64,000 bases of DNA. Source: Eledone cirrhosa. Its lineage: Eukaryota. A program made the translations under genes and the position numbers. Of this stretch, positions 13,168-43,400 are shown piece by piece (the stretch's first letter is position 1; the number at the start of each line of letters is the position of its first letter). The stretch covers positions 204,786,001 to 204,850,000 of the forward strand of contig OZ024740.1 in assembly GCA_964016885.1 (NCBI GenBank). Direction: 5' to 3'. The notes under the pieces were generated by a model. That model was not told the DNA's origin. It did no database searches and saw nothing but the letters and a program-made list of their open reading frames with translations.

Positions 13168-14912
13168 CTTTCTCTCTCTCCCTCACCAATACACCACACT
13201 CTCTCTCTCCCCCATACATCTCTCTTCCCTCTCTCACACCAGACACTCTCTCTCTCCCATACGTATCTCCCTCTCCCACCAATACACCACACTCTCTCTC
13301 CCATACGTCTCTCCCTCTTACACCAGACACTCTCTCTCTCTCCCATACGCCTCTCCCACCACACACTCTCTCTCTACCATACGTCTCTCCCTCTCACACC
13401 AGACACACTCTCTCTCCCATACGTCTCTCCCTCTTACATCAGACACTCTCTCGCTCCCATACGTCTCTCCCTCTCACACCACACACTCTCTCTCTCCCAT
13501 AAGTCTCTCCCTCTCACACCAGACACTCTCTCTCTCTCTCCCATACGTCTCTCCCTCTCACACCACACACTCTCTCTTCCATACGTCTCTCCTATACGTC
13601 TCTCCCTCTTACACCAGACACTCTCTCTCTCCCATACGTATCTCCCTCTCTCACGAATACACCACACTTCTCTCTCTCCCATACGTCTCTCCCTCTTACA
13701 CCACACACTCTCTCTCTCCCATACGTCTCTCCCTCTCACACCACACACACTCTCTCTCTACCATACGTCTCTCCCTCTCACACCAGACACTCTCTCTCTC
13801 CCATACGTCTCTCCCTCTCACACCACGCACTCTCTCTCTCCCATACGTCTCTCCCTCTTACACCAGACACTCTCTCTCTCCCATACTGCTCTCCCTCTTA
13901 CATCAGACACTCTCTCTCTCCCATACGTCTCTCCCTCTCACACCACACACTCTCTCTCTCCCATACGTCTCTCCCTCTTACACCAGACACTCTCTCTCCC
14001 CCATACGTCTCTCCCTCTCTCACCAATACACCCCACTCTCTCTCTCCCATACGTCTCTCCCTCTCACACCTGAAACTCTCTCTCTCCCATACGTCTTTCC
14101 CTCTCACACCACACACTCTCTCTCTCCCATACGTCTCTCCCTCTCACACCAGACACTCTCTCTCTCCCATACGTCTCTCCCTCTCACACCACACACTCTC
14201 TCTCTCCCATACGTCTCTCCCTCTTACACCAGACACTCTCTCTCTCCCATACGTCTCTCCCTCTTACATCAGACACTCTCTCTCTCCCATACGTCTCTCC
14301 CTCTCACACCACACACTCTCTCTCTCCCATACGTCTCTCCCTCTTACACCAGACACTCTCTCTCCCCCATACGTCTCTCCCTCTCTCACCAATACACCCC
14401 ACTCTCTCTCTCCCATACGTCTCTCCCTCTCACACCTGAAACTCTCTCTCTCCCATACGTCTTTCCCTCTCACACCACACACTCTCTCTCTCTCCCATAC
14501 GTCTCTCCCTCTCACACCACACACTCTCTCTCTCCCATACGTCTCTCCCTCTCACACCAGACACTCTCTCTCTCCTTCTAGCACCAGACACTCTCTCTCT
14601 CCCATACGTCTCTCCCTAGCTCACAAATACACCACACTCCCTCTCTCCCGTACGTCTCTCCCTCTTACACCACACACTCTCTTTCTCCCATACGTCTCTC
14701 CCTCTCAAACTAGACACTCTCTCTCTCCCATATGTCTCTCTCCCTCTCACACCAATACACCACACTCTCTCTCTCCCATACATCTCTCCCTCTCACACCA
14801 GACACTCTCTCTCTCCCATACGTCTCCCCCTCACACACCAATACACCACACTCTCTCTCCCATACGTCACTCCCTCTCACACCAATACACCACATTCTCT
14901 CTCCCCCATACA
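13168..14912. repeat. Heterogeneous ~40-bp minisatellite CCATACGTCTCTCCCTCTCACACC(A/AG)ACAC(TC)n
   Basis: Direct reading. Shares CCATAC, ACACCACAC and CT runs with the downstream satellite. Confidence 0.92.
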
Positions 14913-17900
14913 TCTCTCTCTCTCACAGTACACCACACTCTCCCTCACCCATACATCTCTCTCTATCTCTCACAATACACCACACTCTCCCTCACCCATA
15001 CATCTCTCTCTCACAGTACACCACACTCTCCCTCACCGATACATCTCTCTCTCTCTCTCACAGTACACCACACTCTCCCTCACCCATACATCTCTCTCTC
15101 TCACAGTACACTACACTCTCCCTCACCCATACATCTCTCTCTGTCTCGCAGTACACCACACTCTCCCTCAACCATACATCTCTCTCTCACAGTACACCAC
15201 ACTCTCCCTCACCCATACATCTCTCTCTCTCTCTCACAGTACACCACACTCTCCCTCACCCATACATCTCTCTCTCTCGCAGTACACCACACTCTCCCTC
15301 ACCCATACATCTCTCTCTATCTCTCACAGTACACCACACTCTCCCTCACCCATACATCTCTCTCTCACAGTACACCACACTCTCCCTCACCCATACATCT
15401 CTCTCTCTCTCACAGTACACCACACTCTCCCTCACCCATACATCTCTCTCTCTCACAGTACACCACACTCTCCCTCACCCATACATCTCTCTCTCTCACA
15501 GTACACCACACTCTCCCTCACCCATACATCTCTCTCTCTCTCACAGTACACTACACTCTCCCTCACCCATACATCTCTCTCTCTCACAGTACACCACACT
15601 CTCCCTCACCCATACATCTCTCTCTCTTACAGTACACCACACTCTCCCTCACCCATACATCTCTCTCTCTCTCACAGTACACTACACTCTCCCTCACCCA
15701 TACATGTCTCTCTGTCTCACAGTACACCACACTCTCCCTCACCCATACATCTCTCTCTCTCTCTCACAGTACACCACACTCTCCCTCACCCATACATCTC
15801 TCTCTGTCTCACAGTACACCACACTCTCCCTCACCCATACATCTCTCTCTGTCTCACAGTACACCACACTCTCCCTCACCCATACATCTCTCTCTCTCAC
15901 AGTACACCACACTCTCCCTCACCCATACATCTCTCTCTCTCTCACAGTACACTACACTCTCCCTCACCCATACATCTCTCTCTCTCTCTCACAGTACACC
16001 ACACTCTCCCTCACCCATACATCTCTCTCTCTCCCACAGTACACCACACTCTCCCTCACCCATACATCTCTCTCTGTCTCACAGTACACCACACTCTCCC
16101 TCACCCATACATCTCTCACTCACAGTACACCACAATCTCCCTCACCCATACATCTCTCTCTCTCTCACAGTACACCACACTCTCCCTCACCCATACATCT
16201 CTCTCTCTTACAGTACACCACACTCTCCCTCACCCATACATCTCTCTCTCACAGTACACCACACTCTCCCTCACCCATACATCTCTCTCTCACAGTACAC
16301 CACACTCTCCCTCACCCATACATCTCTCTCTCTCTCTCACAGTACACCACACTCTCCCTCACCCATACATCTCTCTCTCTCACAGTACACCACACTCTCC
16401 CTCACCCATACGTCTCTTTCTCTCTCACAGTACACCACACTCTCCCTCACCCATACATCTCTCTCTCTCACAGTACACTACACTCTCCCTCACCCATACA
16501 TCTCTCTCTCTCACAGTACACCACACTCTCCCTCACCCATACATCTCTCTCTGTCACAGTACACCACACTCTCCCTCACCCATACATCTCTCTCTCTCAC
16601 AGTACACCACACTCTCCCTCACCCATACATCTCTCTCTCTTACAGTACACCACACTCACCCTCACCCATACATCTCTCTCTCTCACAGTACACCACACTC
16701 TCCCTCACCCATACATCTCTCTCTCTCTCTCACAGTACACCACACTCTCCCTCACCCATACATCTCTCTCTCTCACAGTACACCACACTCTCCCTCACCC
16801 ATACATCTCTCTCTCTCACAGTACACCACACTCTCCCTCACCCATACATCTCTCTCTCTCTCTCACAGTACACCACACTCTCCCTCACCCATACATCTCT
16901 CTCTCTCTCACAGTACACCACACTCTCCCTCACCCATACACCTCTCTCTCACAGTACACCACACTCTCCCTCACCCATACATCTCTCTCTCTCCCACAGT
17001 ACACCACACTCTCCCTCACCCATACATCTCTCTCTGTCTCACAGTACACCACACTCTCCCTCACCCATACACCTCTCTCTCACAGTACACCACAGTCTCC
17101 CTCACCCATACATCTCTCTCTCTCTCACAGTACACCACACTCTCCCTCACCCATACATCTCTCTCTCTTACAGTACACCACACTCTCCCTCACCCATACA
17201 TCTCTCTCTCACAGTACACCACACTCTCCCTCACCCATACATCTCTCTCTCTCTCACAGTACACCACACTCTCCCTCACCCATACATCTCTCTCTCACAG
17301 TACACCACACTCTCCCTCACCCATACATCTCTCTCTCTCACAGTACACCACACTCTCCCTCACCCATACACCTCTCTCTCACAGTACACCACACTCTCCC
17401 TCACCCATACGTCTCTCTCTCTCTCACAGTACACCACACTCTCCCTCACCCATACATCTCTCTCTCTCTCACAGCACACCACACTCTCCCTCACCCATAC
17501 ATCTCTCTCTCTCACAGCACACCACACTCTCCCTCACCCATACATCTCTCTCTGTCACAGTACACCACACTCTCCCTCACCCATACATCTCTCTCTCTCA
17601 CAGTATACCACACTCTCCCTCACCCATACATCTCTCTCTCTCTCTCACAGCACACCACACTCTCCCTCACCCATACATCTCTCTCTCTCACAGTACACCA
17701 CACTCTCCCTCACCCATACATCTCTCTCTCTCTCACAGTACACCACACACTCCCTCACCCATACATCTCTCTCTCTCACAGTACACCACACTCTCCCTCA
17801 CCCATACATCTCTCTCTCTCTCACAGTACACCACACTCTCCCTCACCCATACATCTCTCTCTCTCACAGCACACCACAATCTCCCTCACCCATACATCTC

Positions 17901-20900
17901 TCTCTCTCACAGTACACCACACTCTCCCTCACCCATACATCTCTCTCTCTCTCTCACAGCACACCACACTCTCCCTCACCCATACATCTCTCTCTCTCTC
18001 TCTCACAGTACACCACACTCTCCCTCACCCATACATCTCTCTCTCTCTCACAGTACACCACACTCTCCCTCACCCATACATCTCTCACTCTCTCTCTCAC
18101 AGCACACCACACTCTCCCTCACCCATACATCTCTCTCTCTCTCACAGTACACCACACTCTCCCTCACCCATACATCTCTCTCTCTCTCACAGCACACCAC
18201 ACTCTCCCTCACCCATACATCTCTCTCTCTCTCACAGTACACCACACTCTCCCTCACCCATACATCTCTCTCTCTCACAGTACACCACACTCTCCCTCAC
18301 CCATACATCTCTCTCTCTCTCTCTCATAGCACACCACACTCTCCCTCACCCATACATCTCTCTCTCTCACAGCACACCACACTCTCCCTCACCCATACAT
18401 CTCTCTCTCTCTCTCACAGCACACCACACTCTCCCTCACCCATACATCTCTCTTTCTCTCACAGTACACCACACTCTCCCTCACCCATACGTCTCTCTCT
18501 CTCTCTCACAGTATACCACACTCTCCCTCACCCATACATCTCTCTCTCTCACAGTACACCACACTCTCCCTCACCCATACACCTCTCTCTCACAGTACAC
18601 CACACCCTCCCTCACCCATACGTCTCTCTCTCTCTCTCTCACAGTACACCACACTCTCCCTCACCCATACATCTCTCTCTCTCACAGCACACCACACTCT
18701 CCCTCACCCATACATCTCTCTCTCTCACAGTACACCACACTCTCCCTCACCCATACATCTCTCTCTCTCACAGTACACCACACTCTCCCTCACCCATACA
18801 TCTCTCTCTCACAGTACACCACACTCTCCCTCACCCATACATCTCCCTCTCTCTCACAGTACACCACACTCTCCCTCACCCATACATCTCTCTCTCTCCC
18901 ACAGTACACCACACTCTCCCTCACCCATACATCTCTCTCTCTATCACAGTACACCACACTCTCCCTCACCCATACATCTCTCTCTCTCACAGTACACTAC
19001 ACTCTGCCTCACCCATACATCTCTCTCTCTCACAGTACACCACACTCTCCCTCACCCATACATCTCTCTCTCTCACAGTACACTACACTCTCCCTCACCC
19101 ATACATCTCTCTCTCTCACAGTACACTACACTCTCCCTCACCCATACATCTCTCTCTCTCAGTACACCACACTCTCCCTCACCCATACATCTCTCTCTCT
19201 CTCACAGTACACCACACTCTCCCTCACCCATACATCTCTCTCTCTCACAGTACACTACACTCTCCCTCACCCATACATCTCTCTCTCACAGTACACCACA
19301 CTCTCCCTCACCCATACATCTCTCTCTCTCTCACAGTACACCACACTCTCCCTCACCCATACATCTCTCTCTCTCACAGTACACCACACTCTCCCTCACC
19401 CATACATCTCTCTCTCTCTCACAGTACACCACACACTCCCTCACCCATACATCTCTCTCTCTCACAGTACACCACACTCTCCCTCACCCATACATCTCTC
19501 TCTCTCTCACAGTACACCACACTCTCCCTCACCCATACATCTCTCTCTCTCACAGTACACCACACTCTCCCTCACCCATACATCTCTCTCTCACAGTACA
19601 CCACACTCTCCCATACATCTCTCTCTCTCTCACAGTACACCACACTCTCCCTCACCCATACATCTCTCTCTCTCTCACAGTACACCACACTCTCCCATAC
19701 ATCTCTCTCTCTCTCTCACAGTACACCACACTCTCCCTCACCCATACATCTCTCTCTCTCACAGTACACCACACTCTCCCTCGCCCATACATCTCTCTCT
19801 CTCACAGTACACCACACTCTCCCTCACCCATACATCTCTCTCTCTCACAGTACACTACACTCTCCCTCACCCATACATCTCTCTCTCTCTCTCACAGTAC
19901 ACCACACTCTCCCTCACCCATACATCTCTCTCTCTCACAGTACACCACACTCTCCCATACATCTCTCTCTCTCTCTCACAGTACACCACACTCTCCCTCA
20001 CCCATACATCTCTCTCTCTCACAGTACACCACACTCTCCCTCGCCCATACATCTCTCTCTCTCACAGTACACCACACTCTCCCTCACCCATACATCTCTC
20101 TCTCTCACAGTACACTACACTCTCCCTCACCCATACATCTCTCTCACAGTACACCACACTCTCCCTCACCCATACATCTCTCTCTCACAGTACACCACAC
20201 TCTCCCTCACCCATACATCTCTCTCTCTCCCACAGTACACCACACTCTCCCTCACCCATACATCTCTCTCTCTCACAGTACACCACACTCTCCCTCACCC
20301 ATACATCTCTCTCTCTCACAGTACACTACACTCTCCCTCACCCATACATCTCTCTCTCTCACAGTACACTACACTCTCCCTCACCCATACATCTCTCTCT
20401 CACAGTACACCACACTCTCCCTCACCCATACATCTCTCTCTCTCTCACAGTACACCACACTCTCCCTCACCCATACATCTCTCTCTCTCTCTCACAGTAC
20501 ACCACACTCTCCCTCACCCATACATCTCTCTCTCTCACAGTACACCACACTCTCCCTCACCCATACATCTCTCTCTCTCTCACAGTACACCACACTCTCC
20601 CTCACCCATACATCTCTCTCTCTCACAGTACACCACACTCTCCCTCACCCATACATCTCCCTCTCTCTCACAGTACACCACACTCTCCCTCACCCATACA
20701 TCTCTCTCTCTCACAGCCCACCACACTCTCCCTCACCCATACATCTCTCTCTCTCTCACAGTACACCACACTCTCCCATACATCTCTCTCTCTCTCTCTC
20801 ACAGTACACCACACTCTCCCTCACCCATACATCTCTCTCTCTCACAGCACACCACACTCTCCCTCACCCATACATCTCTCTCTGTCACAGTACACCACAC

Positions 20901-23900
20901 TCTCCCTCACCCATACATCTCTCTCTCTCACAGTACACCACACTCTCCCTCACCCATACATCTCTCTCTCTCACAGCACACCACACTCTCCCTCACCCAT
21001 ACATCTCTCTCTCTCACAGTACACCACACTCTCCCTCACCCATACATCTCTCTCTCTCTCTCTCACAGTACACCACACTCTCCCTCACCCATACATCTCT
21101 CTCTCACACAGTACACCACACTCTCCCTCACCCATACATCTCTCTCTCTCTCTCACAGTACACCACACTCTCCCTCACCCATACATCTCTCTCTCTCACA
21201 GTACACCACACTCTCCCTCACCCATACACCTCTCTCTCACAGTACACCACACTCTCCCTCACCCATACATCTCTCTCTCTCACAGTACACCACACTCTCC
21301 CTCACCCATACATCTCTCTCTCTCTCTCACAGCACACCACACTCTCCCTCACCCATACATCTCTCTCTCTCACAGTACACCACACTCTCCCTCACCCATA
21401 CATCTCTCTCTCTCTCACAGTACACCACACACTCCCTCACCCATACATCTCTCTCTCTCACAGTACACCACACTCTCCCTCACCCATACATCTCTCTCTC
21501 TCTCACAGTACACCACACTCTCCCTCACCCATACATCTCTCTCTCTCACAGCACACCACACTCTCCCTCACCCATACATCTCTCTCTCTCACAGTACACC
21601 ACACTCTCCCTCACCCATACATCTCTCTCTCTCACAGTACACCACACTCTCCCTCACCCATACATCTCTCTCTCTCTCTCATAGCACACCACACTCTCCC
21701 TCACCCATACATCTCTCTCTCTCACAGCACACCACACTCTCCCTCACCCATACATCTCTCTCTCTCTCTCACAGCACACCACACTCTCCCTCACCCATAC
21801 ATCTCTCTCTCTCTCTCACAGCACACCACACTCTCCCTCACCCATACATCTCTCTTTCTCTCACAGTACACCACACTCTCCCTCACCCATACGTCTCTCT
21901 CTCTCTCTCACAGTATACCACACTCTCCCTCACCCTTACATCTCTCTCTCTCACAGTACACCACACTCTCCCTCACCCATACACCTCTCTCTCACAGTAC
22001 ACCACACTCTCCCTCACCCATACGTCTCTCACTCTCTCTCTCACAGTACACCACACTCTCCCTCACCCATACATCTCTCTCTCTCACAGCACACCACACT
22101 CTCCCTCACCCATACATCTCTCTCTCTCACAGTACACCACACTCTCCCTCACCCATACATCTCTCTCTCTCACAGTACACCACACTCTCCCTCACCCATA
22201 CATCTCTCTCTCTCACAGTACACCACACTCTCCCTCACCCATACATCTCTCTCTCTCACAGTACACCACACTCTCCCTCACCCATACACCTCTCTCTCTC
22301 ACAGTACACCACACTCTCCCTCACCCATACATCTCTCTCTCTCACAGTACACTACACTCTCCCTCACCCATACATCTCTCTCTCACAGTACACCACACTC
22401 TCCCTCACCCATACATCTCTCTCTCTCTCACAGTACACCACACTCTCCCTCACCCATACATCTCTCTCTCTCCCACAGTACACCACACTCTCCCTCACCC
22501 ATACATCTCTCTCTCTATCACAGTACACCACACTCTCCCTCACCCATACATCTCTCTCTCTCACAGTACACTACACTCTCCCTCACCCATACATCTCTCT
22601 CTCTCACAGTACACCACACTCTCCCTCACCCATACATCTCTCTCTCTCACAGTACACTACACTCTCCCTCACCCATACATCTCTCTCTCTCACAGTACAC
22701 TACACTCTCCCTCACCCATACATCTCTCTCTCACAGTACACCACACTCTCCCTCACCCATACATCTCTCTCTCTCACAGTACACTACACTCTCCCTCACC
22801 CATACATCTCTCTCTCACAGTACACCACACTCTCCCTCACCCATACATCTCTCTCTCTCTCACAGTACACCACACTCTCCCTCACCCATACATCTCTCTC
22901 TCTCACAGTACACTACACTCTCCCTCACCCATACATCTCTCTCTCACAGTACACCACACTCTCCCTCACCCATACATCTCTCTCTGTCACAGTACACCAC
23001 ACTCTCCCTCACCCATACATCTCTCTCTCTCACAGTACACCACACTCTCCCTCACCCATACATCTCTCTCTCTCTCACAGTACACCACACACTCCCTCAC
23101 CCATACATCTCTGTCTCTCACAGTACACCACACTCTCCCTCACCCATACATCTCTCTCTCTCTCACAGTACACCACAGTCTCCCTCACCAATACATCTCT
23201 CTCTCTCACAGCACACCACACTCTCCCTCACCCATACATCTCTCTCTCACAGTACACCACACTCTCCCATACATCTCTCTCTCTCTCTCACAGTACACCA
23301 CACTCTCCCTCACCCATACATCTCTCTCTCTCTCACAGTACACCACACTCTCCCTCACCCATACATCTCTCTCTCTCTCACAGTACACCACACTCTCCCT
23401 CACCCATACATCTCTCTCTCTCACAGTACACCACACTCTCCCTCACCCATACATCTCTCTCTCTCACAGTTCACCACACTCTCCCTCACCCATACATCTC
23501 TCTCTCTCTCACAGTACACCACACTCTCCCTCACCCATACATCTCTCTCTCTCTCACAGTACACCACACTCTCCCATACATCTCTCTCTCTCACAGTACA
23601 CCACACTCTCCCTCACCCATACATCTCTCTCTCTCACACAGTACACCACACTCTCCCTCACCCATACATCTCTCTCTCTCTCACAGTACACCACACTCTC
23701 CCTCACCCATACATCTCTCTCTCTCTCACAGTACACCACACTCTCCCATACATCTCTCTCTCTCTCTCACAGTACACCACACTCTCCCTCACCCATACAT
23801 CTCCCTCTCTCTCACAGTACACCACACTCTCCCTCACCCATACATCTCTCTCTCTCTCACAGTACACCACACTCTCCCTCACCCATACATCTCTCTCTCT

Positions 23901-26900
23901 CCCACAGTACACCACACTCTCCCTCACCCATACATCTCTCTCTCTATCACAGTACACCACACTCTCCCTCACCCATACATCTCTCTCTCTCTCACAGTAC
24001 ACTACACTCTCCCTCACCCATACATCTCTCTCTCTCACAGTACACCACACTCTCCCTCACCCATACATCTCTCTCTCTCACAGTACACTACACTCTCCCT
24101 CACCCATACATCTCTCTCTCTCACAGTACACTACACTCTCCCTCACCCATACATCTCTCTCTCACAGTACACCACACTCTCCCTCACCCATACATCTCTC
24201 TCTCTCACAGTACACTACACTCTCCCTCACCCATACATCTCTCTCTCACAGTACACCACACTCTCCCTCACCCATACATCTCTCTCTCTCTCACAGTACA
24301 CCACACTCTCCCTCACCCATACATCTCTCTCTCTCACAGTACACCACACTCTCCCTCACCCATACATCTCTCTCTCTCTCTTACAGTACACCACACTCTC
24401 CCTCACCCATACATCTCTCTCTCTCACAGTACACCACACTCTCCCTCACCCATACATCTCTCTCTCACAGTACACCACACTCTCCCTCACCCATACATCT
24501 CTCTCTCTCACAGTACACCACACTCTCCTTCACCCATACATCTCTCTCTCTCTCTCACAGTACACCACACTCTCCCTCACCCATACATCTCTCTCTCACA
24601 GTACACTACACTGTCCCTCACCCGTACATCTCTCTCTCTTACAGTACACCACACTCTCCCTCACCCATACATCTCTCTCTCTCTCTCACAGTACACCACA
24701 CTCTCCCTCACCCATACATCTCTCTCTCTCTCACAGTACACCACACTCTCCCTCACCCATACATCTCTCTCTCTTACAGTACACCACACTCTCCCTCACC
24801 CATACATCTCTCTCTCTCACAGTACACCACACTCTCCCTCACCCATACATCTCTCTCTCACAGTACACTACACTGTCCCTCACCCTTACATCTCTCTCTC
24901 TTACAGTACACCACACTCTCCCTCACCCATACATCTCTCTTTCTCTCTCACAGTACACCACACTCTCCCTCACCCATACATCTCTCTCTCTCTCACAGTA
25001 CACCACACTCTCCCTCACCCATACATCTCTCTCTCACAGTACACCACACTCTCCCTCACCCATACATCTCTCTCTCTCACAGTACACTACACTCTCCCTC
25101 ACCCATACATCTCTCTGTCTCACAGTACACCACACTCTCCCTCACCCATACATCTCTCTCTCACAGTACACCACACTCTCCCTCACCCATACATCTCTCT
25201 CTCTCTCACAGTACACCACACTCTCCCTCACCCATACATCTCTCTCTCTCACAGTACACTACATTCTCCCTCACCCATACATCTCTCTCTCTCTCACAGT
25301 ACACCACACTCTCCCTCACCCATACATCTCTCTCTCACAGTACACCACACTCTCCCTCACCCATACATATCTCTCTCTCTCACAGTACACCACACTCTCC
25401 CTCACCCATACATCTCTCTCTCTCACAGTACACTACACTCTCCCTCACCCATACATCTCTCTCTCTCTCACAGTACACCACACTCTCCCTCACCCATACA
25501 TCTCTCTCTCTCTCTTAGTACACCACACTCTCCCTCAACCATACATCTCTCTCTCTCACAGTACACCACACTCTCCCTCACCCATACATCTCTCTCTCTC
25601 TCACAGTACACTACACTCTCCCTCACCCATACATCTCTCTCTCTCTCACAGTACACCACACTCTCCCTCACCCATACATCTCTCTCTCACAGTACACCAC
25701 ACTCTCCCTCACCCATACATCTCTCTCACAGTACACTACACTCTCCCTCACCCATACATCTCTCTCTGTCTCACAGTACACCACACTCTCCCTCACCCAT
25801 ACATCTCTCTCTCACAGTACACCACACTCTCCCTCACCCATACATCTCTCTCTCTCTCACAGTACACCACACTCTCCCTCACCCATACATCTCTCTCTCT
25901 CTCTCACAGTACACCACACTCTCCCTCACCCATACATCTCTCTCTCTCACAGTACACCACACTCTCCCTCACCCATACATCTCTCTCTGTCACAGTACAC
26001 CACACTCTCCCTCACCCATACATCTCTCTCTCACAGTACACCACACTTTCCCTCACCCATACATCTCTCTCTCTCTCACAGTACACCACACTCTCCCTCA
26101 CCCATACATCTCTCTCTCTCTCACAGTACACCACACTCTCCCTCACCCATACATCTCTCTCTCTCTCACAGTACACCACACTCTCCCTCACCCATACATC
26201 TCTCTCTCTCACAGTACACTACACTCTCCCTCACCCATACATCTCTCTCTCACAGTACACCACACTCTCCCTCACCCATACATCTCTCTCTCTCTCACAG
26301 TACACCACACTCTCCCTCACCCATACATCTCTCTCTCTCACAGTACACTACACTCTCCCTCACCCATACATCTCTCTCTGTCTCACAGTACACCACACTC
26401 TCCCTCACCCATACATCTCTCTCTCACAGTACACCACACTCTCCCTCACCCATACATCTCTCTCTCTCTCACAGTACACCACACTCTCCCTCACCCATAC
26501 ATCTCTCTCTCTCTCTCACAGTACACCACACTCTCCCTCACCCATACATCTCTCTCTCTCACAGTACACCACACTCTCCCTCACCCATACATCTCTCTCT
26601 CTCACAGTACACCACACTCTCCCTCACCCATACATCTCTCTCTCACAGTACACCACACTTTCCCTCACCCATACATCTCTCTCTCTCACAGTACACCACA
26701 CTCTCCCTCACCCATACATCTCTCTCTCTCTCACAGTACACCACACTCTCCCTCACCCATACATCTCTCTCTCTCACAGTACACCACACTCTCCCTCACC
26801 CATACATCTCTCTCTCTCTCTCACAGTACACCACACTCTCCCTCACCCATACATCTCTCTCTCACAGTACACCACACTCTCCCTCACCCATACATCTCTC

Positions 26901-28140
26901 TCTCTTACAGTACACCACACTCTCCCTCACCCATACATCTCTCTCTCTCTCACAGTACACCACACTCTCCCTCACCCATACATCTCTCTCTCTCTCACAG
27001 TACACCACACTCTCCCTCACCTATACATCTCTCTCTCTCACAGTACACCACACTCTCCCTCACCCATACACCTCTCTCTCACAGTACACCACACTCTCCC
27101 TCACCCATACATCTCTCTCTCTCTCACAGTACACCACACTCTCCCTCACCCATACATCTCTCTCTCTCACAGTACACCACACTCTCCCTCACCCATACAC
27201 CTCTCTCTCTCACAGTACACCACACTCTCCCCCACCCATACATCTCTCTCTCTCTCTCACAGTACACCACACTCTCCCTCACCCATACATCTCTCTCTCT
27301 CTCTCACAGTACACCACACTCTCCCTCACCCATACATCTCTCTCTCTCTCACAGTACACCACACTCTCCCTCACCCATACATCTCTCTCTCTCTCTCACA
27401 GTACACCGCACTCTCCCTCACCCATACATCTCTCTCTCTCACAGTACACCACACTCTCCCTCACCCATACATCTCTCTCTCACAGTACACCACACTCTCC
27501 CTCACCCATACATCTCTCTCTCTCTCACAGTACACCACACTCTCCCTCAGCCATACATCTCTCTCTCTCACAGTACACCACACTCTCCCTCACCCATACA
27601 TCTCTCTCTCTCTCACAGTACACCACACTCTCCCTCAGCCATACATCTCTCTCTCTCACAGTACACCACACTCTCCCTCACCCATACATCTCTCTCTCTA
27701 TCACAGTACACCACACTCTCCCTCACCCATACATCTCTCTCTCTCTCACAGTACACCACACTCTCCCTCACCCATACATCTCTCTCTCTCTCACAGTACA
27801 CCACACTCTCCCTCAGCCATACATCTCTCTCTCTCACAGTACACCACACTCTCCCTCACCCATACATCTCTCTCTCTATCACAGTACACCACACTCTCCC
27901 TCACCCATACATCTCTCTCTCTCTCACAGTACACCACACTCTCCCTCACCCATACGTCTCTCTCTCACACAGTACACCACACTCTCCCTCACCCATACAT
28001 CTCTCTCTCTCACACAGTACACCACACTCTCCCTCACCCATACATCTCTCTCTCTCTCACAGTACACCACACTCTCCCTCGGCTATACGTCTCTCTCCCT
28101 CACCCATACACCTTTCTCTCTCACCCATACATTTTTCTCT
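14913..28140. repeat. ~13.2-kb tandem satellite, unit CACAGTACACCACACTCTCCCTCACCCATACAT(CT)4-8 (about 41-49 bp, roughly 300 copies)
   Basis: Direct reading. The 33-bp core is nearly invariant and length variation is almost all in the (CT)n tract. Copy number estimated from length. Confidence 0.98.
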
Positions 28141-28741
28141 GTCACCCACATCTATAAAAGACTAAAATAACCAGGATTCCATTCAATTATTTACGGACGT
28201 TTCTATCAACACAGTAAGATGTTCCATCATTCTCCTCTCAATTGACTACTTCGGAATCCATTAAAACAAAAGTTCTCAACGGGGGGCATATGCACCCCCG
28301 GGGGCGTTTCGGAACTCCAGGGGGGCGTTTGGGAGCAAGGTCGCGTTAGGAGCTTGAGGGGGGGGGATAGGGGGCGTTGGAAGACTCTTTACTTTGGTAA
28401 GTTTTATAAGCCATATTTGTATGTCTTTGAGACAGCCGGTGTGAATGCATTTGAATGAGCTTGCAGACAGCATAACTATAGTCTGACCACACCTGTGAGG
28501 AGGTGTGTCTAGAAATTAACCGGTAATTGAGATCCTAAAAATGAAAAAATCCACAGTCAACTGGGTCAAAGAAACTTTGAGCGCAGCCAGTTCGAATCTT
28601 ATCTTTCCTTCACCGATAACAATGTATTTCATGTCTGAAATTATTGACTCAACCGTAACGAGTTAACGCTATGTAGATCTATTTTATTCCCTATTGTATA
28701 AATAATATTACAAATAAAAAAAACAAAAAAAAACACAGAAG

Positions 28742-29340
28742 TGGGTAGCACACACATGTAGGACCACATACAACACATAAGCAGGTAATACACGCATCTA
28801 AGACCACATACAACACATACGCAGGTAATACACACATCTAGGACCACAGGCAACACATAAGGAGGTAGCGCACACACATCTAGGACCACATAAAATACAC
28901 AGGCAGGTACCACACACATCTAGGACCACATACAACACATAAGCAGGTAACACAAACATCTAGGACCACATACAACACATAATAAGGTAATACACACATC
29001 TAGGACCACATGCAACACATAAGGAGGTAGCACACACACATCTAGGACCACATAAAACACACAGGCAGGTAGCACACACATCTAAGACCACATACAACAC
29101 ATAAGCAGGTAATACAAACATCTAGGACCACATACAACACAATCAGGTAATACATACATCTACGACCACATACAACACATAAGGAGGTAATACACACATC
29201 TAGGACGACATACAACACACAAGCAGGTAATACATACAGCTGGGACCACATGCAATACATAAGCAGGTAATACATACATCTAGGACTACATACAATACAC
29301 AGACAGGTAATACATACATCTAGGACCACATACAACACAC
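28742..29340. repeat. ~40-bp minisatellite (TAATACACACATCTAGGACCACATACAACACATAAGCAGG), ~15 copies, inside the hAT element
   Basis: Direct reading of recurring TCTAGGACCACA at ~40-bp spacing. Confidence 0.93.
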
Positions 29341-30384
29341 ATTGTATCATGTGCTACGGACGACGCAAGAGCAATGGTCGGCCAACATAAGAGCTTTGTC
29401 ACTCTTCTGAAGAGAGAAAATCTATCTGTGTTTGCTGTTCATTGTGTCATTCATCGACAACACTTGGCTGCGAAGAAATTCAGCAAGCCTCTGAGCAAGT
29501 CCTTGCAGGTAGCCATTGATGTCATCAATTTTATCAAACGGCATTCCCTCAATGAACGAATTTTCCAGCAACTGTGCCAAGTCAAGTTGCTCCTTCATAC
29601 TGAAGTGAAGTGGCTTTCAAAGGGCAAGTGCTTTATTCACTTCTTTCAACTCTTCGACTCTATCATTGAGTTTCTGCGAGGACGCAACACAGAACTGTAC
29701 AAGAAAACCCTCGATGTGAGGCAAGACTGTGCCTACCTCACTAACATCTTCGACAAATGCAATAGCGTCATTTTGGCTTTGCAGGGGAAGAAGATCACCT
29801 TGCTTAAAGAAAGGAATGCTGTGAAAACATTCCTGGCTAAATTGAATGTCATCGAAAGAAATTTTGTTGACGGGAATTCTATAATTTTCCTAGTGTCGGC
29901 AATGTTCAAAACATTGTAAGCGATGACCAACTCCAAATTTATACCACTCACCTCCGTGCGCTACAAGACAACATGAGAACGGTTTGTCGACCTTTTGCCG
30001 ATGAACATCCCAGTGTGGATAGCAGATCCCTTCATAGCTAACGTCGACGATTTGGACGTTAAATTTCAGGAAGAATTCATTGAACTTCAAGCAGATGACA
30101 TAATCAAAATAAGATTTCCCAAAATAAGTGAACCCCTTTTTGGGATGCAAGAGTAAATTCAGCGTTGATTTCCACACCTACATGCAGAGGCTAAGAGATT
30201 TGCTCTGCCTTTTCCAAGCTCATACCTAGTCGAGAGGAGGCTTGGTGCTGTTTCCAGACTGCACAGTAAGTCTCGCAACCGCTACAATGTAATTACACGT
30301 GGAGATCTCTGGCTACATCTTATGAAAATTCAGCCTCACGTCAAAGAGTTAGCTAGACTCCATGAAGCTCAAGGGTCCCATTGA
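29341..30384 (+). pseudogene. hAT transposase C-terminal half (SCAND3/ZBED8/TcBuster-like), frameshifted
   Basis: IVSCATDDARAMVG (TDGAxAMxG), HCVIHRQHLAAK (CxxH), LLLHTEVKWLSKG, LPFPSSYLVER, and terminal HEAQGSH*. Frameshifts after ~29870. Confidence 0.9.
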
Positions 30385-32483: not shown

Positions 32484-32640
32484 GGACAAAATGAAAACAC
32501 ACACGCACATAGAACAAACAACCAACCAGTAACATGTAAATAAACAAATAAATAAACGAATATAAACACACACAGACACCCGGATGTAACACATGCGCAA
32601 ACTAAGCACACAACACACACAAAAACAAGATGGCGTAGGA

Positions 32641-32895
32641 TGTGGTTAGAAAAAGCTATCTAACTTACCGCTTTTCGTAGGCGCCGCTAAACTCCACTGC
32701 AAGTTACTCCTCTTCTACGTGCGTCCAACTGCTTAACACCGGGAGCTGCCCAAAACTCGCGTCCACACCGTTTGCTGGTCACCACTAAAGAGAGGCCCTC
32801 TGCTGGCCCTTCCGGTCGAGCATCCTTCCGGCCAAACACCCTTCCGGTCGAGCACTCCCCCGCCTCCGGCCACCGCACGCCACACCATACCCACA
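32641..32895 (-). repeat. 3' LTR (255 bp)
   Basis: TGTGG..CCACA termini. 6 substitutions relative to 36580-36834. Confidence 0.97.
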
Positions 32896-32897
32896 CG

Positions 32898-32905
32898 CCC
32901 CCCCT
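32898..32905 (-). promoter_or_regulatory. Polypurine tract AGGGGGGG, 2 nt before the 3' LTR
   Basis: Sense strand AGGGGGGG-CG-TGTGG. Confidence 0.8.
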
Positions 32906-32909
32906 GATC

Positions 32910-35802
32910 TCAAGGATCAATTTCCCCCTCGTCCCTCTGCATATGAAAGTCTGCTGTCCAGGTTGGTGGTCTACAACTTCGTTGCGATCTTCGTAGTATT
33001 GGGGCAGAGCTCTGGGTTTCCACCTCATCTTGGGTTTCCTCTTCCTCGGAGTCCGTCGACACAGTGATTCTTCTTACATCCAGGACAGGACGTGGTACCC
33101 CGTCCACGGACACATTGTTCTTTGAATTTACGGCCGTCACCGTTCCCCTTCCCCATTGAGATGTGCAACGTGCATCTGGGGGCTTAACCCAGACTTCTTC
33201 GCCCACCTGCACGAATGCACTCTCTCTCCCCACTGGCCGTTGTGGTGGCGTGCACGGGTGCCGCCACTCGTATTTGAATACTGCTCTGTGTGGCACCGAT
33301 TCCTCGACCTGTCCAACCCGAGGGGACATATTGTACCAGAACACTGCCTCCATTGGTGAGATATGGCCCCGCTCCGCCATTGCCTTGATCGTCCGGTGGT
33401 GTCGCTGCACGATTCCATTCCCGCTCGGCCTGTGCGTCGCTCTGAAGAAACGGTCCACCTTCCATCCATCGAGCATCTCCCTCAGTGCCTCCGAGCGGAA
33501 TGCTGCGCTGTTGTCCATCAGCAGTTCGTCCACAGGGCCCCGCTCCAAGAACACCTCTCTCAACGTCCGCACGATTTCCTCGGCCGTTCCAGTCCTCATC
33601 TCCCTCCATATCGCCATTCGACCTGGTCCACAGTCGACCATCGAGAGGTACGTTCCCTGCCGGTAGTGCGTCACATCCACCGCTAATCGCTTCCAGTCGC
33701 GATCCACCGGGAGGCTTCCCGTTTCGTGTACACCCGGAGTACACCCGGAGCGGGATCAATGGACTGACATCGGGCGCAGCCTCTAACCCCCCCCCCCCCC
33801 GAACACTGTGTCTGCTAACGTCCGAGTCGATTCTCCTGGCTAGGAACAGGCTCCTATCAACCCCCATGTGGTGCATGTCATGCAACCCCTTCAGGTCTGA
33901 CTTGGTCAGCCGACACACGGCAGCTATCTCATCCTCTACCTCCTCCGGCGCTTCCATCCAGGCTTTCTTCACTCTAGTTAAGATGTCCGCCCTATTTTTC
34001 TCTGAGGGCACGAACACTACGCTCAGCTTCAGGTCGAACTCGGTGGCCAGCTCTCCTAACGTTCCCAGGCGGCGCTTTATCAGCATCTCCGCCGCGCCTC
34101 TCGTTCGCACTCTCTTCTCCCTGGTGAGCACTGATCTTACCCATCCGAGTACAGTAGCCGAGTCAGTGCGTATTTCGATGGTGCGCAGCCCCCACCGCAG
34201 GGCGAGGTTCACCCCTCTCAACACCGCGTCCAGCTCGGCCACATTGATGTGGCTGCAGTCGTCCTTCTTTCTAAGCCAGGCTGCATCCTTGACCTCAACA
34301 CCTCCTATCTCCAACGTGACACCCAGCGCTATGCTGCTGGCATCGCACCATACGGTCCCGCTCTGTGATTTGGGAATATACCAGCGTCCCCGCACTGGGT
34401 CGTCGGCCTTCACCCTCCCCACGATCTCCTGCATCATGGCCACCGTCCTCTCTCCCACTCTGTCACTCCAGGTCACCCCTCCCGCTCGTCTCTTGACATA
34501 GCTGCATGCCGTCCGGAGCCACCCAGCGATCGGGTAGTGACCCACCAGCTTTCCACACACCGAGAAAAGCTCCCGCCTACTCATACTTGGGCCCAGTTCC
34601 GGAACTTCGTTTCCCCTCTGGAACACCAAAACGCCCGTCTTGTCTCGCCGTAGCCTAAGTCCCAGCGCGGCTCCTCCCTCCAATGCTTCTGATGGCTTCG
34701 CAGTCAGTCCATACCTCCGCAAATGGCTCGTGACCTCCGCCGTCGACACCACCGACTCGTCCACTAGGATGTCGTCAATATAGGAGTTAGTAGCCCTCTT
34801 TATCTTGTCGGCCCTCCCCAGAGCGGTCTTAAGGACCGCCGACATGATCTTCGGTGCGGAGCTCAGCCCGAAACCGAGCCTGGTTAGGCAATATGTCCGG
34901 CCCTTATACCTGACCAGCTGATACCGCTAGAGCTTCTCATCTATATGCAACTGCAAGTAAGCCGACTTTAGATCCACGATCGCTGAACCCCCCGTCATGC
35001 GTCTCCACTCACGCAGGGTTTCCCCACAGACATCCGTGACCTCGCCACCCGTGTGGCATGACACGTGCTCGTTCAGCTCCCGATAGTCCAGCACCGGCCT
35101 CACCTTGCTCTTCGTGGGTTGCACCACCGCCATTAACGGCAATACTCCGCACTTCACCTCCTCCTTCCAGGGAAGCAGTATGCCCTCTTCGATCCATCTC
35201 TCTACTTCTCGCTCGAACTCGCTCCTAGCGTTTCCCTTCAATGTATGTTGATAGCAGCCCACTTTGGTCTTCAGTGTTGGTGGTTCTCCCTTCCAGTACC
35301 ACTCAACAACCCATCGCTGCCCATCAAACACGGCCTTGAAGTCTTTGTCCTGTACAGTGTAAGCGGGGTATTCCTCCTCGTGGGCCTTCTGGTTCTCATG
35401 GCGTGCACTCACAGCGCATACCGATGCAGCGGCGCCAAACGACACACCGACATTGTTCACCGTGACGCCCCCTAGACGGCCAATCGCGTCCATGCCCATA
35501 ACCACGCCGATCCCATCCACCACACTGTCTACCACGATGGCGGAAAGCCTTATCCTCCTTCCCCGTACCGCTATTTCCATCTCGCTGCGACCTCGGCATT
35601 CAATTTTCCTGCCGTCGACTGCCTTTACGCTGCTCTTCCCTCCCCACCTCTGCGCCACCCCCGCGGTCACCAGTGTCGTCGTACAGCCCGTATCCACGAG
35701 GGCTCGCTGTGGCTTCCCCCTCACGAAGACTTCCACCACGGGCAGCGCCGCTACTCGTAAGGGGCAACTACCGGCGCAGTAGTTCCCCTTGGATCGTTTC
35801 CC
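32910..35802 (-). pseudogene. pol: Gypsy pol (protease, RT, RNase H, integrase) with an in-frame stop and frameshifts
   Basis: PR ALVDTG; RT VRPVLDYRELN, VDLKSAYLQL, YIDD; RH CDAS/INVAELDA/TDS; IN LHDMHHMG, VDVTH, MDNSAAF, GIVQRHHRTIK. TAG at 34927-34929 lies in an otherwise continuous frame, and there is a frameshift at the C-run/duplication 33730-33800. Confidence 0.93.
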
Positions 35803-36509
35803 TGGTCGCAGTTGGTAGCGATGTGGCCTGGTCGCTTACACCGGTAGCAAATTATCTCCGGCTTTGACTCTCTACAGTCTCTAGCCATGTGCGGGCCCTG
35901 GCACCGAAAACAGCGCCCTCTAAACGCTCGCGGGCGGCTGCGTGCCGAGGTTGCCTCCCTTTCACAATTTCGCTGCCAGGTGTCCTGAGCCTCCGTAGTT
36001 GCTATCGCCGCAACACTCTTTTTGGTATCTTCCGCTATGATCCGGGCTTGTTCCACCAGTGAACGCATTTCCATCTCTTTATAACCCGGGACTTGCTGCA
36101 GTTTCACCGCTATGTCGTCCGGAAATCCATTGATGAACGCCAACCGCACCGTGCGTTCGCATTCCACCTGGTAACCGGCCAACATGGCCAACCGCCGTAT
36201 TTCCGCTGCGAAAATGTCGACGCGCTCACCATTCCACCTGATTCTCGCCAGCTTAGCAAAAGCCGCCAACGGTCCCTCGGCGAATGCATCCATCAGACGC
36301 CTCTCAATCTTCTGCGCATATCTTTGGCTATGCTCGTCCAACTCAAGGAAGAGTACCAACGCGTCGCCCTCGAGGTACAGTGCCATGAGGCCAGCCACGT
36401 CCTCTATCTTCTGCAAGCTTGCGACCAGCCGAACCTTCCGCAGCCAAGCGACATCACCTTTTCCGGTGAATGGCCTGATAGCTTCATTCAACCGTAGTCT
36501 TGTCGCCAT
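35751..36509 (-). CDS. gag: Gypsy Gag with two zinc knuckles (252 aa)
   Basis: IRPFTGKGDVAWLRK N-terminus, CFRCQGPHMARDC and CYRCKRPGHIATNC. The ATG follows the PBS/leader. Confidence 0.93.
   Translation of the reverse strand: MATRLRLNEAIRPFTGKGDVAWLRKVRLVASLQKIEDVAGLMALYLEGDALVLFLELDEHSQRYAQKIERRLMDAFAEGPLAAFAKLARIRWNGERVDIFAAEIRRLAMLAGYQVECERTVRLAFINGFPDDIAVKLQQVPGYKEMEMRSLVEQARIIAEDTKKSVAAIATTEAQDTWQRNCEREATSARSRPRAFRGRCFRCQGPHMARDCRESKPEIICYRCKRPGHIATNCDQGNDPRGTTAPVVAPYE
35759..35802 (-). promoter_or_regulatory. -1 programmed ribosomal frameshift signal (G GGA AAC + stem-loop)
   Basis: The slippery heptamer at 35796-35802 is in gag phase (CAG GGA AAC), followed by a 5-nt spacer and hairpin AAGGGG-AACUACUG-CGC-CGGUAGUU-G-CCCCUU. 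The -1 frame runs open into the protease. Confidence 0.85.
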
Positions 36510-36567
36510 CTTCTGATTTGTCTTGCGGCAAGTGGTTTTTTTTTTTTTTTTTTTTTTTTTTTCAGTC

Positions 36568-36579
36568 GCCGAAATAGCT
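36568..36579 (-). promoter_or_regulatory. Non-canonical primer-binding site AGCTATTTCGGC, complementary to nt 1-12 of tRNA-Phe(GAA)
   Basis: Directly abuts the CA of the 5' LTR. The plus strand reads GCCGAAATAGCT, the conserved 5' end of metazoan tRNA-Phe. No TGG start. Confidence 0.75.
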
Positions 36580-36834
36580 TGTGGTTAGAAAAAGCTATCT
36601 CACTTACCGCTTTTCGTAGGCGCCGCTAAACTCCACTGCAGGTTACTCCTCTTCCACGTGCGTCCAACTGCTTAACACCGGGAGCTGCCTAAAACTCGCG
36701 TCCACACCGTTTGCTGGTCACCACTAAAGAGAGGCCCTCTGCTGGCCCTTCCGGTCGAGCATCCTTCCGGCCAAACACCCTTCCGATCGAGCACTCCCCC
36801 GCCTCCGGCCACCGCACGCCACACCATATCCACA
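36580..36834 (-). repeat. 5' LTR (255 bp)
   Basis: 249/255 identical to 32641-32895. Three CGGAAG (ETS-like) motifs on the sense strand. Confidence 0.97.
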
Positions 36835-36881
36835 TAGGACAGAACAAAGGAGAGGCACAAAAACAAAGAAAAGAATCCCCA

Positions 36882-40442: not shown

Positions 40443-43400
40443 CTACAGGCTCACACTCAGAGCGGGCCCATTCACTCGAGCCATGCTCTCCTCTCTCACC
40501 CACCTTTCAACAGATTGATTTGAAGGCCGCACTTCTCTCTTTACCCTTATTTTCCTCCTCAAGTGAAACCTGAAGAAGTTAATCAGAGCTTCGCCAAAGA
40601 CGAAAATGCTCGTCTTCAACACTTTCAAGCGGGTCTACCATAACGCCTCATTCGCCATGGTCACAAGGAAGACAAAAACAACCTGTCCTTCTTGACTAAA
40701 GGATGGCGGCGGGAGAATCTTCACAATGGACTCGGCTCATAGCCGGATTCGTTCTACACGCGACAGCAGGTGTTCGACATAAAACCACAAGTCAGCAATA
40801 CTCGGACACTGGACGATTGCGGGCATGGCGGTTTCGTTTCCCTGCGCGCATCTCGGACAGATCCGGCTGTAGAGTTTATCTCGAACTGGTAAAGCTCCCC
40901 GGTAGCCAGGCCAGGGGTCCCTGGAAATGTTGCTTGGCTCTGGACGAAAGTCCCCCCGAAAAGAGTGGCTAGTTAATTTTCATCGATGCCTTGAGCTTCC
41001 CCAAGAACGTCGTCGCTATCAGCCTCCACAAACCCTCTATAGAACGCCAATGTGGAGTTTCCACCGATCATACTACCCGATTGGCGGAGGGCTATGAGCA
41101 CCTGAGGACATTCCAGTTTCCAAGTGCTCCCCCTCGGTTTCCGCTTGAGCCAGGACTGCAGCTCTGTTAAGATGACCATTAAGGAAATGGTGGAGATGTC
41201 GTAGCCTCAGCGCATTTCTGCGCACCCCCAGTCCTCCACGCAGCGGGTGTTAAAAGCAAATGGACCACCTGACCATCGGAACGCGTCCCTTCCACAAGAA
41301 GTGAAAGAGCTAACGCTCCTGTGCAATCAAACGAGGTGTGGGACAAAGCACGACGGTCGAGCGTCAGGGGCAGCTTTCTCTCGGTCCATTTCTGGGTGAA
41401 ATTAGCCAATCTGTTCGTCATCTCGTCCCAATTTTTGTCCATCTGGAAGTCCGGACCGGACCAGACCCCAAGCAATTTAACCGGTCCGTCTATTCAGCGT
41501 CCGACAATGCTGTTGGACGGCATGAACATGCCTCTCTGGGTAACGAGTTGTAGGTCCACCAACTTTTCCTGGTTAATTTTCGCTCCTGTCAGCGCTTCGT
41601 ATTCCCTTAGAACAGTGCCGCTGCTCGACACTGCAACGGTGATCTCCCATGTCCTAGTTCGCGCGGGATGCTCCTCAACGTCTCTAATTTGTGCAGTAGT
41701 GGCTCTAAAGTCAATACATACAACAGAGACGAGAATGGACAGCCTTGGCGGACCGAGCGCATGATATTGAACGGTTCCGAGGGGTGACCGTTCACTCTAA
41801 CCGAGGATCAGATGTTGCTGTGCATAGCAGCGATCCACCCCCCCTGAAAATAGGTCCAAATCCTGCTGCTTTGAGGGCCGCCGCCAGGTACCGATGGTCG
41901 ACCCTATCGGATGCTTTCGATTGATCTAAGTTGATCAGTGCCACCCTCTCTATGATGTATCGCATAAGGTGGAGGATGTCGTGGATGGATCTCTTGGGAA
42001 TGGCACATATCTGCGCCTCCCCTACCAGACCAACGACGACAAGCGTCAGCTTCATTGCTAACACCTTGGGGCAAAATTTTGAACTCTGCATTTAGTAGAG
42101 TTATGCGCCTAAAATTACCTATAAGATCTCCTTTGTTTGGGTCCTTTCTCAGCAGTGTCACTGCTCCTCGGCTCACAGAACTGAGAATTCTCCCGTTCTG
42201 CTGCCAGTTGCAGTAGACGTCTGCAAAGATGTTGCCGAACAAGTCTGGCATGTGAACGTAAAGCTCGTAGGGCAAACTATCCAAACCAGGTGATTTACCT
42301 CTGGTGCAGCCGGTCATTGCCTCCCGTATTTCAGCAGCTGTTATTGACTTCTCGCAATATTCCGCCTCCGTCGCTGATAGCCACGGCAGGCCGTCGAGAT
42401 AGACAGTGAAGTCCATCTCGCGATCCAGCCCGACGCTGCTCCCGAACAGTTGGGCAAAGTGTTGCTGAAAAGTCGCACACATCTGCTTGGGATCGAGTAA
42501 CATATGCCCGTCGTGATGCTTCAAAGATCGGATTGTGGATTTGTTGCCACGCCGCACCTTCACCACTCGGACCCATTAAACGGCTTTCCCCACCTTGTGT
42601 CTAAGAACACGCATTTTAGCTCTGACTACGCAGCCTTTGTGCTTAACATTGAAGAATTGCTCCAAAGCCAATCTCACCGCAAAAACGTCGGTTGCGATGT
42701 CTTTGCTAATTGCCTCCTCTAGTTTCTTAACTAGCTCTCCTTCTACTTTAGTTTTCTCTATTGATACGGCTTTCTCTGTTGCTAAACCTTATCGATTCTA
42801 CTCTAATCGCCCTTTTCAGGTCGTACCACCACTTGCTGTGAACGATTGCTTAACTAATTCATTAGTCCTGTCTCTGTAGGCTTTGCGCGTTGGGAATGAG
42901 GCGTTCAGCTTCCAGTAACCGGGTCCTTGCCTATGGAGCCTATCTAGATCTACTGCACATGACACAAATTTGTTGTCTGCGTATTCGACTATTTCAAATT
43001 TCAAATTGCTATCTTTGTCTACTTCCCTACAGAATATCCTATCTAGATACGATCTGGATGACATGATGCGGTTACTCCATGTCCACATTGGCGCATTCGG
43101 AAAGTACAGTCGGTACCTGTCAAACTGATGGAAGCGTCTGAGCAGGTTTGCGAGGCTTTTACATCCCCCACTCCTATCTGTTAGTCCCACACAGTCCAAG
43201 CGTGCATCTAAGATACCGTTCCAATCACGCACTAAGACTAAGGAGCGAGGCATTCCTAGAATGGTTTCCAGGCATCGGAAGAAATCAGTTCGTCCTGTCC
43301 CTGTCCGAGCATTGACGGCTAGTAGCCTGAAGGCGTCTCATTCTCCAGTACCACCGATTTGCTCTCCAAGTCCAGGAAGATGGTCCGTATTGCGAGATTC

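Follow-up and report, generated by a model that had tools for sequence, protein, structure and literature searches.

We describe here a lineage of LTR retrotransposons whose primer-binding site (PBS) complements the first twelve nucleotides of a tRNA and directly follows the 5' LTR. The site is real and defines the lineage, and it has probably not been described so far. Judged from the sequences, it is highly probable that a tRNA 5' fragment some 12 nt long primes the first strand. To the whole reading, in which a lineage-wide site would be used by such a fragment after its cutting by the element's own RNase H, we assign a probability of roughly 0.5.

The DNA analysed comes from Eledone cirrhosa (GCA_964016885.1, OZ024740.1:204,786,001-204,850,000); this whole stretch of 64,000 nt is called the window, and all positions given below are window positions. 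An LTR retrotransposon of 4,194 bp on the minus strand carries the candidate PBS and shows two TG...CA LTRs, a TSD, a polypurine tract (PPT), gag and pol (Table 1), both of its ends being fixed because the 5-bp TSD TCCTA flanks the LTR pair. Automatic calling, in which the ends were often placed inaccurately, gave a perfect 5-bp TSD in 26 of 51 host LTR pairs. A constant spacer between PPT and LTR was also sought, and none could be defined. The window copy is broken, with an in-frame stop codon in the RT (34929-34927) and a frame break ahead of the integrase, while in the alignment it conserves the RNase H residues D195, E231 and D314. The overlap of gag and pol contains a possible slippery site (candidate at 35802-35796), and DUF7047 is likely the RT thumb.

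Table 1 Features of the retrotransposon, in window positions
Feature	Position	Strand	Basis
TSD, 5' copy, TCCTA	36835..36839	-	sequence
5' LTR, 255 bp, TG...CA	36580..36834	-	249/255 identical with 3' LTR
PBS, no gap to LTR, complementary to tRNA-Phe(GAA) nt 12 to 1	36568..36579	-	host tRNA match and lineage conservation
5' leader, A-rich, short; differs between families	36510..36567	-	comparison of families
gag, two CCHC zinc knuckles, ATG at 36509	35751..36509	-	one knuckle scored by Pfam, the second by sequence reading
pol part 1: protease and N-terminal RT, -1 frame relative to gag	34927..35835	-	ORFs/domains
pol part 2: RT active site YIDD, DUF7047, RNase H	33790..34926	-	Pfam/alignment
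integrase core (rve), frame differs from RT-RH after G run near 33800	32910..33755	-	ORFs/Pfam
polypurine tract, a run of A and G, with 2 nt, upstream of 3' LTR	32896..32905	-	sequence
3' LTR	32641..32895	-	LTR alignment
TSD, 3' copy	32636..32640	-	sequence

The 12-mer AGCTATTTCGGC is present once in the window, at 36579-36568, where it directly abuts the CA of the 5' LTR with a spacer of 0, and no TGG-type PBS follows the 5' LTR of the window element. It is the exact complement of nucleotides 1-12 of host tRNA-Phe: a tRNA-shaped pattern starting with the complement of the PBS gave 222 matches in the host genome versus 0 for the reversed control, and the three loci tested with ARAGORN were tRNA-Phe(GAA), with their 5' base at the start of the match. 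The initial annotation, made from the letters of the window, had claimed a 12/12 match beginning at tRNA nucleotide 1, flush with the LTR and without a TGG site, which was borne out in the sequence, and the 5' end of the host tRNA-Phe agrees with the one that it gives. For a single fixed site, a chance identity with nucleotides 1-12 of any of ~50 tRNA types has a probability of ~3e-6, or 2e-4 if any register is allowed. Against tRNA 3'-CCA ends the best match of the PBS was 1 nt in a partial set of 13 host tRNA types; neither these ends nor the element's own LTR offered a partner better than the one proposed in the annotation. Half-tRNA priming, in which the anticodon stem of a tRNA-Met or a tRNA-Ile marks the end of the PBS, is not what the site indicates, its partner being nucleotides 1-12 of tRNA-Phe or tRNA-Lys. 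Genes for tRNA-Phe, together with tRNA-Asn, and for tRNA-Lys(CTT) form long tandem arrays on host C4 at ~117.36-117.54, 79.56-79.62 and 128.67-128.74 Mb.

Among the copies in the host genome, the best 30 siblings by DNA search (42 rows, obtained with a query containing the site itself) carry the site exactly in 26 cases and with one change in 4. Copies selected by their Pol protein have it in 56 of 60 cases (45 unchanged, 11 with a single change), the remaining four being three copies without a visible 5' LTR end and one in which the site is lost; these 60 were taken by rank from 105 Pol-protein matches, leaving aside two extra matches from a single small contig and a locus that was in the set before. 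With patterns that leave out the subfamily of the window element, 102 and 5 matches were obtained in the host genome, versus 1 and 0 in the controls. The matches adjoin at least seven dissimilar LTR ends, as judged by eye, and most are tied to a gag (35-92% identity). Two of them (L255, L256) are chance matches with no element at the locus, and one further match resembles a tRNA-Phe pseudogene. We also noticed an abundant host family (L043, L046-L048, L050, L052-L054 and similar loci) with the same site, related LTRs and no gag match, which is likely a non-autonomous derivative. In most host families a splice-donor-like GTRAG precedes the end of the LTR by ~25 nt (36606-36599, minus strand, in the window); it was rejected as a lineage-wide feature because it occurs in 5 of 48 elements, close to the 4.0 in control windows.

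Searches for relatives of the RT-RH region yielded 83 loci, 78 from metagenomes and 5 from MAGs, and none were found in viral contigs. The gag N-terminus plus at least 45 nt upstream is contained in 56 of the 83, and 52 of these 56 external relatives, with RTs 39-56% identical, have the full 12-nt pattern, no farther than ~270 nt from gag and almost always directly after CA. The sites of the other four are damaged by one substitution, by single-base losses in two cases, and by truncation near the contig start. The initial annotation expected the 12-mer to persist in related elements, and it is indeed conserved in siblings and distant relatives alike.

The position analysis comprised 48 elements, after removal of 5 near-duplicates and addition of the window element. 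Their LTRs end in A-C-A, these bases being found in 46, 44 and 47 of the 48, while at PBS +13 the commonest base reaches only 22 of 48, so that conservation ends at tRNA nucleotide 1; the flanks of the site diverge and the PBS stays. The site occurs as 11 distinct 12-mers, which are interspersed in a quickly built tree with 53 rows. In the 48 elements the changes fall on PBS positions 6-9, opposite acceptor-stem nucleotides 7-4, and twice on position 1; the invariance of positions 2-5 and 10-12 is partly due to the selection pattern, which only 4 of the 56 loci failed. Base 4 of the PBS is T in all elements and faces A9. According to the available part of PMC10275265, G9 of tRNA is commonly m1G-modified, and m1G at this place would block the pairing.

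The changes follow actual tRNAs in two cases. The 12-mer shared by L131 and L133 is altered at each of the four variable positions and exactly complements nucleotides 1-12 of the host tRNA-Lys(CTT), a gene of Eledone and not of the hosts of these two loci (69 pattern matches, most with that start, and ARAGORN on one). The 12-mer carried by six loci is complementary to a tRNA-Phe of eukaryote type found in L207. Altogether 3 of the 11 variants could be linked to an actual tRNA, with an own-host link for the window's variant only. The aligned sites show that the register of the PBS (tRNA nucleotides 12 to 1) is kept while its letters change with the tRNA. The partner named in the initial annotation, tRNA-Phe, therefore holds for the window element and not for the lineage as a whole, as the site of relatives corresponds to tRNA-Lys(CTT) in the same register, and probably to other tRNAs. 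Elongator tRNA-Met, a candidate partner of the C-initial variant (L114, L138), was not confirmed: the host searches gave no such gene, and in viral contigs 1 of 42 matches was a tRNA, called Phe. A tRNA-Lys(TTT), the candidate for L142 and L147, was likewise not confirmed by the host searches. Of the tRNA-Phe-like genes in viral contigs, 73 of 74 match no PBS variant, and three contaminated MAGs contained bacterial-type tRNAs only, with no matching one. L145-L149 are animal-type elements of the lineage on contigs of bacterial MAGs, a placement that is likely contamination.

Rearranged copies provide a separate view of the site. In retroviruses, failed strand transfers join at the PBS end. If the primer is tRNA nucleotides 1-12, plus-strand strong-stop DNA is expected to end at the 12th base, with failed transfers joining there. 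Six of nine breaks, all classified by eye, lie within 1 nt of the 12th base in a 31-nt interval (L253, L254, L262, L044, L265 and L263; p 5e-5), five of the six junctions belonging to one LTR family and two having a common landing site; with the independent clear cases alone, four of seven breaks are at the 12th base (p 2e-3). What follows this base is inverted pol DNA in L253, L254 and L262, direct internal DNA in L044 and L265, and DNA from outside the element in L263. Microhomology of ~4-5 nt with the PBS 3' end accompanies the junctions of L253, L254, L262 and L044 (for L262 deduced from the landing site that it has in common with L254), although joins by microhomology may be favoured at the PBS end simply through its richness in G+C. 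Both LTRs are present in L253, where the TSD agrees at 4 of 5 positions. The three remaining breaks are at +4, +14 and +23, and six more copies of the LTR family giving five of the junctions have a normal leader. No solo LTRs with a primer copy inside the TSD were found (L266 is ambiguous); L264, a solo LTR, was rejected as one of this kind, its TSD mimicking the start of the site.

The mechanism that we propose would begin with invasion of a packaged tRNA by the site, displacing the acceptor 3' strand and the D-stem partner. The RT-RNase H would then cut the tRNA at the edge of the duplex and free a 3'-OH, by analogy with Tf1. This edge is fixed at nucleotide 12 because tRNA nucleotides 13-15, which are CAG in host genes, cannot pair with the LTR-terminal ACA; the primer 3' end could be at nucleotides 10-11 instead if the integrase trims a dinucleotide. 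Later on, plus-strand synthesis would read the primer as far as tRNA nucleotide 1 and run off, a step which the rearranged copies support and which would leave an overlap of 12 nt to be used in the second strand transfer. The duplex was calculated at -18.7 kcal/mol, versus ~9 for opening the tRNA and 8.5 for opening the site, for unmodified RNA and with an imperfect cloverleaf as tRNA model. Levin, to go by the title of a 1996 paper cited in PMC4600332, reportedly found that the Tf1 RNase H cuts an RNA duplex and so frees the primer. The acidic residues of RNase H are retained in 28-31 of 31 relatives, and we infer from the Tf1 analogy that this enzyme may cleave an RNA-RNA duplex to release the primer. 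The element's RNase H is favoured because that of Tf1 frees the primer likewise, and because one ruler gives the same end on different tRNAs.

Production of the primer by the host, either from a tRNA 5' fragment of greater length, be it a 5' half or the product of a D-loop cut, after trimming to the duplex, or by a host nuclease cutting the refolded tRNA, is a possible alternative to which we give clearly less than even odds, although element-made and host-made cuts would fit the sequence evidence equally and host cutting or trimming appears nearly as likely. It agrees with every sequence observation, has a precedent in the 5' tRNAiMet half of copia (PMC10275265, in the portion available), and makes the opening of an intact tRNA by a 12-nt site unnecessary. 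However, it needs an identical end point on different tRNAs and in hosts of many phyla, for which a cut at the duplex edge is simpler. Many tRNA-cutting RNases leave cyclic phosphates, which are not extendable, and such ends would stop the RT. An improbable variant dispenses with any nuclease: a whole tRNA could prime from a 2'-OH near nucleotide 12, as retrons prime from a 2'-OH, or the pairing could serve packaging or control only, with a different primer in use. A free 3'-OH is indeed not visible in sequence, but the breaks exactly at the 12th base suggest readthrough from the LTR to tRNA nucleotide 1 and fit a linear junction, and the LTR is not followed by a TGG-type site. Moreover, no second, Ty3-like site that pairs with the remainder of the tRNA was found, pairing in 21 elements reaching 6.7 nt versus 6.7 nt in shuffles.

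It is very unlikely that a different conserved small RNA, or an unexamined tRNA, ends in these letters and serves as primer with its 3' end. Our comparison covered 13 host tRNA types, which leaves room for such a molecule, yet the site begins precisely at tRNA nucleotide 1 and switches to nucleotides 1-12 of a second tRNA by four simultaneous changes, and the top 3'-CCA match is a single nucleotide. Self-priming of the Tf1 type from the element's own transcript is hardly credible, even though the site abuts the LTR, is of comparable length, and can be reached by folding of the window's U5. The best Watson-Crick match within 400 nt upstream averages 7.5 of 12 versus 7.6 in shuffled sequences (43 elements, maximum 9), U5 pairing is 5.1 versus 6.0 nt in shuffles (48 elements), so that a conserved U5-PBS hairpin with no excess over shuffles was rejected, and the LTRs diverge while the site stays constant.

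Priming from a fragment of tRNA 5' end would relate these elements to several known systems. In Drosophila copia, Osser, Bryco and Bianca, all of the Ty1/copia group, the primer is a 5' tRNA piece made by an internal cut (PMC6317226 and PMC10275265, in their accessible parts), as is proposed here. In the copia group it is the anticodon stem that is cut, and the PBS lies on the middle of tRNA-Met or tRNA-Ile, whereas here the site matches nucleotides 1-12 of tRNA-Phe or tRNA-Lys and the proposed cut is in the D-stem; the pol order, PR-RT-RH-IN, is also unlike that of the copia group. Ty5 is half-tRNA primed as well. For plants, the consulted section of PMC6317226 reports half-tRNA priming for copia-type lineages only. 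Tf1/Tf2, Tj1 and Tf1/sushi elements resemble the present ones in having a short PBS that matches the very 5' terminus of an RNA, which needs a cut for its 3'-OH. The PBS of Tf1 is 11 nt long and flush with the LTR. In Tf1/sushi this RNA is the element's own transcript, whereas here it would be a host tRNA, acting in trans. The integrase piece of the window gave no match to a chromodomain. With retroviruses and most Ty3/Gypsy elements the lineage shares the pairing of a host tRNA next to the 5' LTR; they use its 3'-CCA end, whereas here the opposite end of the tRNA is paired, TGG and spacer are lacking, and an uncut 3' end would be unusable. The strong-stop DNA of retroviruses copies the primer (PMC7472051, available part).

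Troyka elements (Kuafuorterviruses) are, like ours, compact invertebrate LTR elements formerly placed under Gypsy, with the order gag-PR-RT-RH-IN, and are described in the parts seen of PMC12440569 and PMC11673190 as having CG...CG termini, TSDs of 3 bp and a knuckle with long spacing. This identity was rejected, the window element having TG...CA ends and a 5-bp TSD, together with YIDD and canonical CCHC knuckles. The Cigr-1 clade, named from Ciona, is presented in the excerpt of PMC6238403 as a Gypsy clade of low copy number that occurs in cephalopods and in a snail, with 7 low-copy families in Octopus bimaculoides. Compared by description only, it is a possible name for the lineage of the window. 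We take the Cigr-1 element and its LTR to be similar in size to those of the window element. No Ciona name occurs among the homologues listed. An 'atypical PBS' of Culex proved to be an inserted tRNA dimer and is unrelated.

The nearest named proteins are those of Octopus (67-76%), followed by crustaceans, sea slugs, a sea spider, a bryozoan, Hydra, whipworms and a sponge. The pol order PR-RT-RH-IN is that of Ty3/Gypsy (Metaviridae), and to this extent the name 'Gypsy' used in the initial annotation stands; it is a loose label, though, because the RNase H never matches the Ty3/Gypsy Pfam families, the Ty3-type RT connection/RNase H families PF17917 and PF17919 being matched by 0 of 31 aligned members. 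In the same 31, Pfam finds DUF7047 in 31, RVT_3 in 29 and RNase_H in 18. A wide gap separates scores inside the lineage (E 6e-139 or stronger) from those of PF17917/PF17919 proteins (2.5e-13 or weaker). Among solved structures the best 60 matches are HIV RTs, all weak (best E 3e-10), and in the ESM Atlas the matches are unnamed or RVT_1 clusters. On these protein comparisons, the elements form an isolated lineage with a Gypsy-like gene order, which may deserve a clade or superfamily of its own. The fuller proposal, that an isolated animal-wide lineage (DUF7047, non-Ty3 RNase H, possibly its own superfamily) captures the intact tRNA 5' end and would cut it after nucleotide 12 by its own RNase H, is put forward tentatively, at somewhat less than an even chance.

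No earlier description of this priming type or motif was found in the literature, subscription papers, Repbase, GyDB and the original Cigr-1 paper being outside the search. A survey of plant LTR elements distinguishes three primer types, namely whole tRNA, half tRNA and self (PMC6317226, available part). If true, our reading would add a fourth LTR priming class, a kind of 'Tf1 in trans', and very short 5' fragments of tRNA would then have a retroelement enzyme among their sources. It would also link Tf1-like cleavage of an RNA duplex with tRNA priming, which bears on the evolution of one from the other. The elements are predicted to evade silencing by 3'-tRFs and to be exposed to 5'-tRFs, and the reading also explains why PBS finders based on tRNA 3' ends would see no site in them. 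The named relatives of the lineage come from sponge, Hydra, bryozoan, molluscs, crustaceans, sea spider and whipworms, the PBS itself having been read in the Eledone host and in unnamed contigs only.

Elsewhere in the window, a tandem array of a 43-45-bp unit in ~310 copies occupies 14588-28145; it has an extreme G/C strand skew and is the source of long spurious ORFs. Further ORF pieces at 62169-63755, 3764-4303 and 41904-43337 (all minus strand) and at 29311-29919 (plus strand) read like the RT/endonuclease of non-LTR retrotransposons and a DNA transposase.
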